Virus record (IMG/VR): IMGVR_UViG_3300021375_000006
DNA length: 64,000 nucleotides
From: a virus
Lineage: Duplodnaviria > Caudoviricetes
Direction: 5' to 3' (one strand)
In this document: positions 60,981-62,015 of the stretch, one piece after another
Numbering within the stretch: the stretch's first letter is position 1
Layout: each line of letters opens with the position of its first letter
The notes under the pieces: generated by a model
The model's database searches: none
Seen by the model: the letters and a program-made list of their open reading frames with translations, nothing else
What the model was told of the DNA's origin: nothing
Made by a program: the position numbers and the translations under genes

Positions 60981-61187
60981 CTACTTTTTAACTCCGAATT
61001 TAGAAAATTTATACCACGCTCTTTCGTGTATATAATACAGAATCATTTTTGTAACTACTTCTACACCACCGATAGCTAGACCCCATTTCCAATTACCTGT
61101 AATTATCCAGGAAATAATCATGGTATCTATAGTACCTATAATTCTCCACGTGATAGTTTTTAAAATATGTCTTTTTCTACTAACCAT
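60981..61187 (-). CDS. DUF2061 membrane protein
   Basis: RHILKTITWRIIGT...KMILYYIHERAW. Confidence 0.9.
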   Translation of the reverse strand: MVSRKRHILKTITWRIIGTIDTMIISWIITGNWKWGLAIGGVEVVTKMILYYIHERAWYKFSKFGVKK

Positions 61188-61588
61188 TATAGTTGACCGT
61201 CTTTTTTCATTTGTTCTCTAATTGAAGTTGCAGATATTTCACCAATCTCTCTTGGAGGTATATGTTCAATAATATCATAGCCAACACCTCTACCATAATT
61301 AATAGACTCAATATCTGGTATAATAGTAGGTAAGACTTTACCAGCTTCTATCAGTTCTTTTAACTCTCCCTCTTTTATCATTTCTAAAATCTCTGCAGCA
61401 GTCCATGGGTTTTTTTCATCTGGCTCTACATCTCTAATACCTAGCCAAACATTGTAACCCTCTTTTAATCTCTCATTAATTAACCATAAATGCCCTTTGT
61501 GCAGTGGTTGCCATCTACCAGCAAAGAATGAATACTTAGTTTCAGATGAAGATGATTTGAATGCTGCTTGTGCTTTATACTGTGCCAT
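61187..61588 (-). CDS. HxGH-family nucleotidyltransferase (cytidyltransferase-like)
   Basis: FAGRWQPLHKGH, KNPW, ISATSIR. Confidence 0.85.
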   Translation of the reverse strand: MAQYKAQAAFKSSSSETKYSFFAGRWQPLHKGHLWLINERLKEGYNVWLGIRDVEPDEKNPWTAAEILEMIKEGELKELIEAGKVLPTIIPDIESINYGRGVGYDIIEHIPPREIGEISATSIREQMKKDGQL

Positions 61589-62015
61589 TAATATGTTGTT
61601 TTACTTTTTCGAATGATTGTTCTGGTGTATCTACCGTGGTATCAATATCTACAAAATTTGTTTTAGGTGCCACGTATGCTTCTGCTTTCCAATGATCGCG
61701 TTCGCGCGCTTCGGTAGTATGAATATAGAATTCTACAATAGAATCACCTAAGATCGCTTTAAATTCTTCTCTCTGATCGATATACGGAGAAACTAGACTT
61801 ACAATTACATCATGGTTTTGATTATGTAGATAATGAGCAATCCTTTGAGCAGTAGCCACATTCTTTACTCGACCATTAATACTGTAGTCTTTATTAGTAA
61901 AGAGTTCACGCATTTCATCACCATCAATTCTAAAGGCATTAGGTAATATCTCTTTTAGCTTATTTGCTAATACCGTCTTTCCTGCGGCCGGTTGGCCTGT
62001 AAACCAGTATATCAT
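61575..62015 (-). CDS. cysC: adenylyl-sulfate (APS) kinase
   Basis: WFTGQPAAGKT, IDGDEMR, VSLVSPY, YVAP. Confidence 0.88.
   Translation of the reverse strand: MIYWFTGQPAAGKTVLANKLKEILPNAFRIDGDEMRELFTNKDYSINGRVKNVATAQRIAHYLHNQNHDVIVSLVSPYIDQREEFKAILGDSIVEFYIHTTEARERDHWKAEAYVAPKTNFVDIDTTVDTPEQSFEKVKQHINGTV

Follow-up and report, generated by a model that had tools for sequence, protein, structure and literature searches.

A 133-residue HxGH protein from a large-phage-like genome as a candidate member of a minimal ATP sulfurylase family

Introduction

In the reactions of HxGH enzymes pyrophosphate and an anion exchange a nucleotidyl group, and the locus under study, part of a 64,000-nucleotide stretch of viral DNA (IMG/VR record IMGVR_UViG_3300021375_000006; hereafter the window), encodes a very small protein of this type in a gene overlapping that of an APS-kinase-like protein. 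The question raised by this arrangement is where the APS for such a kinase would come from. Two types of ATP sulfurylase are recognised, Sat and CysDN (PMC3779200, PMC10322725). Using tblastn with reference proteins we found none of Sat, CysD, CysN and CysH in the window, a 64-kb portion of a genome with contigs extending to 254 kb or more. For these 64 kb the result agrees with an earlier sequence-only reading, which had noted the absence of CysD/CysN and Sat and had proposed that the HxGH protein may be a minimal ATP sulfurylase, with a DUF2061 protein as its membrane partner, supplying PAPS to two sulfotransferases. We have carried out an analysis of the three genes, of their homologs and of their neighbours in viruses and cells, and consider it very likely, on comparative sequence evidence, that the 133-aa HxGH protein belongs to an undescribed third, minimal family of ATP sulfurylases.

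Results and discussion

The cassette and its genome

The three open reading frames were confirmed; all are encoded by the minus strand, the kinase first, then HxGH and DUF2061: a short APS-kinase-like P-loop protein of 146 aa (61575-62015; PF01583, E 1.2e-15), the HxGH nucleotidyltransferase and candidate minimal ATP sulfurylase of 133 aa (61187-61588; PF01467, E 1.8e-5), and a DUF2061 protein of 68 aa (60981-61187; PF09834, E 8e-24). There is an overlap of 14 nt between the kinase gene and the HxGH gene, and the latter has one base in common with the DUF2061 gene (TAATG). The three genes are as previously read from the letters. Upstream in the same gene run, a Cys-rich ORF of 64 aa (62019-62213) lies between the kinase and a DXD glycosyltransferase-like gene (62210-62908, minus strand; PF04488, E 2e-6), whose order is kept in other contigs with an identical HxGH protein. 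On the other flank, a 243-aa ORF on the plus strand (60248-60979), also present in close phage relatives, has its end 1 nt away from the stop of DUF2061 and no match in Pfam, NCBIfam or PHROG. A scan for promoters and terminators returned counts at chance level.

The identical HxGH protein is also encoded by metagenome contigs, the longest being of 254 kb, and four related large contigs are devoid of sat and cysDN. The window itself looks like part of a large, jumbo-phage-like genome, as judged from the fact that nearly all genes are on one strand and from the presence of two thymidylate synthases, ClpP together with a Clp ATPase, PhoH, UvdE, Hsp20, ribosomal protein S21 and long repeat-rich fibre-like proteins. 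Ribosomal protein S21 is encoded at 21273-21473 (minus strand; PF01165, E 1.4e-11) with PhoH (20199-20879) nearby, and the two thymidylate-synthase-family genes are found at 55623-56486 and 59236-60156 (minus strand), the 287-aa copy being divergent and possibly a nucleotide-modifying enzyme. Between 35262 and 53308 (minus strand) there are several genes for long proteins in which collagen-like Gly-X-Y repeats and Gly-Ser-Ser repeats occur, and a Peptidase_S74 chaperone domain (34310-35230) and a DUF2827 gene (45094-46362) were also noted.

Sequence and fold of the HxGH protein

The window protein is a single-domain member of a family of about 115-133 aa, with 7857 homologs of similar length. 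Its PF01467 score is 25.4 bits for a cut-off of 21, and this profile is matched by 122 of 126 diverse family members. The window sequence presents the motifs GRWQP-x-HxGH (24-33), R52, GRGVGY (99-104) and SAT-x-x-R (119-124), and the positions found to be near-invariant across the 126 members are G24, R25, Q27, H30, H33, R52, P61 and D92, followed in the later part of the protein by G99, R100, V102, G103, Y104, S119, T121 and R124. Every family residue present in the cysH- and apr-linked copies (see below) is retained. The AlphaFold2 model (pLDDT 90.6) gives HUP-fold matches, with fold-search Z scores of 9.6 for NMNAT, 9.5 for PPAT and 7.5 for Sat (1v47), and the best PDB sequence matches are the NadM/archaeal NMNAT entries 1f9a, 2qjt, 2qjo and 1ej2 (profile E 2e-12).

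Databases label the family as cytidyltransferase, NMNAT, PPAT or FAD synthase, and these names agree with the top sequence and structure matches in pointing to a small nucleotidyltransferase acting on NMN/NaMN, pantetheine phosphate or a sugar phosphate. We hold such a function to be very improbable, as the window protein scores far below the NMNAT/PPAT family cut-offs (15.8 vs 103 and, for membership of NadM/archaeal NMNAT, 31 vs 181.2 bits for TIGR01527 and 41.7 vs 127 bits for PRK01153) and its NMN-side segment, after strand 3, is shorter than that of 1f9a by about 25 residues. In the corresponding alignment, family profile positions 79 to 88 pair with 1f9a 76 to 110, leaving 8 vs 33 residues between the aligned blocks; in NMNAT this segment contains the nicotinamide-stacking Trp. 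Also, the neighbour families that recur across 160 loci include none recognised as belonging to the NAD or CoA pathway, and a NadD distinct from the HxGH protein is encoded by four of the five carriers tested.

With respect to Sat, its profile PF01747 gives no match to the window HxGH protein and is weakly matched by 30 of the 126 members, with a best E of 1.3e-4. In Sat, the Gln and Arg of the QXRN motif bind the sulfate of APS, as does the backbone NH just past the GRD loop, and the ribose is held by the backbone of the Gly and Arg of this loop (PMC3779200). QXRN is absent from the window protein and from the family, which have GR[WFY]QPxHxGH instead and keep HxxH. The third residue of GRxVGY varies among the 126 members (GRG in 66, GRK in 11, GRD in 10, GRN in 9, and others), a literal GRD being found also in one haloarchaeal fusion. 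The hhalign comparison of the family with Sat is weak (probability 15%) and aligns only residues 27-75, leaving the GRxVGY region outside. From these comparisons we assign the HxGH protein to the NadM/archaeal NMNAT branch and not to the Sat family, and the best explanation for the origin of the family is a NadM/archaeal NMNAT ancestor which would have lost part of the NMN-side segment.

A quick tree (119 columns, midpoint-rooted, to be read as a coarse grouping only) places the cysH-linked and apr-linked copies on opposite sides of its deepest (midpoint) split. Close cellular relatives of the window protein, at L085 and L087, adjoin APS kinases of about 200 aa; the scan of cellular genomes used a narrow alignment and favours close relatives. 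A number of homologs (P0132-P0138, P0143 and P0220) carry long N-terminal extensions resembling homing-endonuclease domains, either Cys-rich or NUMOD3.

Genomic contexts in cells

A first context is that of sulfate assimilation through CysH. Five Nitrospirales share an operon composed of Rrf2, sulfite reductase, APS reductase, HxGH and a YbiB-like gene, without a kinase; Rrf2 was seen in three of the five, and the APS reductase of one of them (L127) scores 272 against the TIGR02055 cut-off of 235. In related Nitrospirales the same operon continues with cysD-cysN. CysD is found in 114 of 121 Nitrospirales genomes, the five HxGH carriers being among the seven without it, so that 114 of the 116 non-carriers have CysD; the carriers form one clade and thus amount to one evolutionary event. 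The same five genomes hold a separate Sat-APSK fusion within a glycan cluster, in which the Sat motifs are altered in four of five, with loss of the GRD loop in three, and intact in one. The four altered Sat domains (L193, L194, L195 and L196) have modified QXRN, HXXH and GRD motifs next to a kinase domain that looks intact, and the fusion seems, from its sequence, to be on the way to becoming a protein that is only a kinase. The alteration of the Sat motifs fits a take-over of the APS supply by the HxGH protein. In four Dadabacteria-type genomes, one of which is a single-chromosome 2.08-Mb assembly, CysC and CysH are encoded elsewhere, the HxGH gene is unlinked to them, and Sat and CysD are absent.

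A second context involves APS kinase and sulfotransferases. Fusions of HxGH and APS kinase domains were found in both orders; in the one at L142 the kinase is above the apsK cut-off (200.8 vs 138.7) and the gene is located after sulfotransferases, and at L125 the next gene is of the inositol-monophosphatase/CysQ family. The three cultured haloarchaea examined have a sulfotransferase followed by a CysC-HxGH fusion, on plasmids. In Marinimicrobia a kinase-HxGH pair lies near a Sulfotransfer_5 gene, and a single-chromosome assembly of this group (G014) contains no Sat or CysD; a phylum-wide search detected the family in 7 of 201 Marinimicrobia genomes, all of about 1 Mb.

The third context is that of AprBA in SAR11 (Pelagibacterales). 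SAR11 bacteria are described as having AprBA and CysC while lacking sat and cysDN, with cysC and aprA each present in five of seven genomes and in the same columns of the table as printed (PMC5069961), and most SAR11 are reported to be without ATP sulfurylase (PMC10356861). Among 201 SAR11 genomes we found HxGH in 157 and AprB in 155, the two genes being present together in 147, HxGH alone in 10, AprB alone in 8 and neither in 36; these counts are phylogenetically non-independent and come without values of genome completeness. Sat was detected in 7 of the 201 genomes and CysD in 10, none of these ten having HxGH. As a separate observation, seven genomes of the order, without AprB and HxGH, have a CysD open frame of about 495 aa vs about 300 (for example L246:1498-2985), a length which suggests an N-terminal fusion.

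In six SAR11 genomes the HxGH gene is directly upstream of aprM-aprB: at L222 and L226 it lies about 50 bp before them, on the same strand and with no kinase ahead, and the spacing between HxGH and aprB is the same in G479, G520, G530 and G550. At L200 it is sat that occupies the position before aprM-aprB, which is also the place of sat in A. vinosum (PMC3779200). Another SAR11 subgroup has a kinase-HxGH pair tail to tail with aprMBA, and in most SAR11 the pair is far from aprMBA, the gene after the short kinase being in a betaine/C1 region. In some SAR11 this betaine/C1-region pair is followed by a HalD-like 2OG enzyme (L233:6409-10293), and a YeeE/YedE-like gene pair near it was recognised by eye only.

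Overall, the HxGH family is tied to enzymes that use APS in genomes without Sat and CysDN, with exceptions: in about 13 of 50 genomes it co-occurs with CysD or Sat, and six Bacteroidota/Acidobacteriota carriers also have CysD. Considering that APS is what connects three otherwise unrelated proteins, namely APS kinase, the CysH-type reductase and AprBA, the simplest reaction for the family would be ATP + sulfate = APS + PPi. These contexts indicate APS, and not the direction or the type of reaction, and one can thus conceive a protein that handles APS or PAPS otherwise, be it as a hydrolase of APS, as a regulator which binds it or as a helper subunit of the lid-less kinase; the absence of QXRN, the genomes which also have CysD or Sat, and the fact that many partner kinases are lid-truncated go along with such a role. 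We regard it as improbable, given that the catalytic HxGH, R25 and SAT-x-x-R are near-invariant and that HxGH genes occur next to CysH and AprMBA with no adjacent kinase; moreover, a hydrolase or a helper leaves the source of APS unexplained in genomes with CysC and CysH and without Sat or CysD. As to the earlier proposal of a minimal ATP sulfurylase, comparative genomics strongly supports it, and one point of the reasoning, the link to Sat, has to be corrected, as the protein falls in the NadM branch and has no QXRN.

The viral cassette and its sulfotransferases

The short kinase of the window contains the P-loop, the DGD motif, the two APS-binding arginines and the S-P motif of CysC (TIGR00455), keeping R36, Y44, R49, N52 and S76-P77, and its residues G7, G12, K13, D33, R36, R49, P77 and R82 align with full-length APS kinases. 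The same alignment evidences the lack of about 25 residues of the lid segment, which in APS kinase takes part in substrate binding (PMC10322725), and the protein remains below the NCBIfam apsK cut-off (TIGR00455; 53.4 vs 138.7 bits). Nevertheless, APS kinases are the best PDB matches of the kinase family profile (E 6e-20). The kinase model, folded without an alignment, is poor (pLDDT 53) and was left out of the evidence.

To assess how far the cassette is conserved, the HxGH protein was used as the sole criterion to select 80 IMG/VR loci (57-92% identity). The kinase is present in 73 of the 80 and DUF2061 likewise in 73, and the full trio is found in 66; since the loci were picked by the HxGH protein only, this grouping is not due to chance. 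Sat, CysD and CysN had no match in any of the 80. The neighbourhood survey named as a check in the sequence-only reading found the trio to be kept and sulfur-pathway contexts to exist in both viruses and cells. In 28 of the 80 loci the cassette also includes a gene for a small HAD phosphatase, located in most cases between those of the kinase and the transferase (as in L003:3477-3821). The window has a small HAD-family phosphatase (27193-27621, minus strand; HAD Pfam matches), related to the cassette HAD with a phmmer E of 3.7e-13, which adjoins the glycosyltransferase/sulfotransferase block and not the cassette; we consider it a candidate PPi or PAP phosphatase.

The DUF2061 protein scores 84.3 bits for a PF09834 cut-off of 23.1, and in two homologs (P0201 and P0281) DUF2061 is fused to the HxGH domain. 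In bacteria it is found in rrf2-DUF2061-cysH-cysD, before cysC-cysD-cysN and after sulfite reductase, such sulfur contexts accounting for 7 of 18 metagenome loci plus L254. As these neighbours include cysH-cysD and cysC-cysD-cysN, DUF2061 goes with sulfate activation whatever the type of sulfurylase. The protein is moderately hydrophobic (about 1.0 for the best 19-residue Kyte-Doolittle window), and its 'membrane' label comes from the Pfam name. A role as membrane partner of the HxGH protein, as had been suggested, finds no clear support in this general association, and DUF2061 is absent near most cellular HxGH copies.

With respect to PAPS consumers, the window encodes a clear sulfotransferase of 518 aa (29089-30645, minus strand; PF00685, E 1.1e-11) with an N-terminal RRGGT loop, which is a likely user of PAPS. 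The adjacent gene (30635-32713, minus strand) encodes a GT-B glycosyltransferase (PF00534, E 3.9e-6) with a weak sulfotransferase-like C-terminal domain, in which PF00685 reaches 20.4 bits for a cut-off of 22 and the 5'-phosphosulfate loop is altered. Both genes are about 29 kb from the cassette. Hence, of the two sulfotransferases formerly counted in the window only the first is confident; the idea that the cassette supplies PAPS to phage sulfotransferases is reasonable, and would have this one as its single confident recipient. The genes are part of a tailoring block (26241-34245, minus strand) next to the fibre-like genes, which comprises an ATP-grasp protein, the HAD phosphatase, the sulfotransferase, the GT-B fusion, a GT25 fused to a 2OG oxygenase-like domain and a 2OG-Fe(II) oxygenase.

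In about 20 of the 80 viral loci the fetched flank includes a sulfotransferase-like gene, and PF00685 is matched in 15 of 39 contigs, most of which are partial; of the three near-complete contigs without a PF00685 match, two are matched by another sulfotransferase query. The PF09037 profile gave no match anywhere, controls included. With the queries used, no sulfotransferase was found in phage G565 (93% complete), nor, with a single query, in phages Salvo and DLP6. Divergent kinase-HxGH fusions occur in the cultured phages Salvo and Sano (Xylella) and DLP6 (Stenotrophomonas), as in L081:6575-7321 and L082:6608-7339.

These long-branch fusions of Salvo and DLP6, found without a sulfotransferase, the divergent and lid-less window kinase and the many SAR11 copies in the betaine/C1 region would be compatible with a scheme in which only some subfamilies use sulfate, the kinase and HxGH proteins of phages and of some SAR11 activating another small anion or a phosphomonoester through adenylylation and then 3'-phosphorylation, as in CoA synthase. 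We give this scheme a small probability: the window protein retains the family residues of the cysH- and apr-linked copies, its close cellular relatives adjoin full-length APS kinases and a Sulfotransfer_5 gene, a sulfotransferase is encoded in the window, and it is to APS kinases that the profile of the kinase family is closest. The preferred reading of the gene content is that the window cassette probably makes PAPS for phage sulfotransferases.

Relation to known systems and proposed mechanism

The HxGH family shares features with each of the known systems. Like Sat (PF01747; 1V47, 4DNX), it has the Rossmann core of the HxGH superfamily (1v47: Z 7.5, 117 aligned residues, rmsd 3.6), a G-R loop after a later strand, the same proposed reaction and the same position before aprM-aprB. 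Unlike Sat, which has about 390 residues, its members have about 115-133, neither a PUA-like N-terminal domain nor domain III being present, they lack QXRN, and the span from His to SxT is of 86 residues rather than about 150. The combination of an HxGH adenylyltransferase and a P-loop APS kinase, in either order, recalls the PAPS synthases and Sat-CysC fusions (human PAPSS1, 1X6V; Aquifex, 2GKS), from which the present pairs differ in that the HxGH half derives from NMNAT and is about three times smaller, the kinase often has a truncated lid and, in the window, kinase and transferase are separate overlapping genes.

The GR[WF]QPxHxGH start, the NP motif and the C-terminal S[AG]T-x-x-R are common to NadM/archaeal NMNAT (1F9A, 1EJ2, 2QJO; TIGR01527), whereas Arg52 stands where NMNAT has a Gly-Ser motif, and the GRxVGY loop and the sulfur-pathway neighbours are particular to the HxGH family. 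The job inferred for the family is that of CysDN (TIGR02039), the HxGH gene occurring in the Nitrospirales sir-cysH operon and cysDN in that of relatives; unlike CysD, a PP-loop protein which requires the GTPase CysN, the mini enzyme has no GTPase partner, and there is no sequence match between CysD and the HxGH family. Finally, PHROG 10255, catalogued as 'kinase' and including the Xylella phages Sano and Salvo, is a kinase-HxGH fusion matching both window proteins; its members, unlike those of the window, are long-branch, and the catalogue assigns no function to them.

Using the chemistry of the superfamily as a guide, the candidate mini enzyme would catalyse ATP + sulfate = APS + PPi, with the HxGH histidines, R25 and the SAT-x-x-R helix binding ATP and releasing PPi, and with R52 and the GRxVGY loop holding sulfate, this loop being the likely counterpart of the GRD-H-A loop of Sat. 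In the phage, the adjacent short kinase would phosphorylate APS to PAPS, pulling the unfavourable first step, and PAPS would feed the phage sulfotransferase or sulfotransferases, probably acting on glycans made by neighbouring glycosyltransferases; it is the proximity of glycosyltransferases to the sulfotransferase that suggests glycan acceptors. In cells the family would supply APS to CysH for assimilation, and in those with AprBA the HxGH enzyme may run backwards after AprBA, resulting in sulfite oxidation with gain of ATP.

Conclusions

The reaction and the superfamily are already known, and the family itself is undescribed in the literature found, as our search, with a limited coverage of subscription papers, returned no published description of the HxGH mini family. 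On the strength of the genomic patterns we consider it likely that a third ATP sulfurylase family, about a third of Sat in size, has evolved separately from an enzyme of NAD synthesis, that it is the missing enzyme of SAR11, that it serves assimilation in some Nitrospirales and Dadabacteria, and that it provides PAPS in many large aquatic phages. If this is true, a third ATP sulfurylase, mislabelled 'cytidyltransferase', would close the stated gap in SAR11. Its relevance to marine sulfur stems from the presence of the family in 157 of the 201 SAR11 genomes sampled, SAR11 being the most abundant ocean bacteria, and the views of marine sulfur cycling and of SAR11 energy metabolism drawn from genomes would change in consequence. 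Cultured carriers exist, namely Pelagibacter strains and haloarchaea. Likewise, many large phages would be carrying a complete PAPS pathway, and not a lone cysC.
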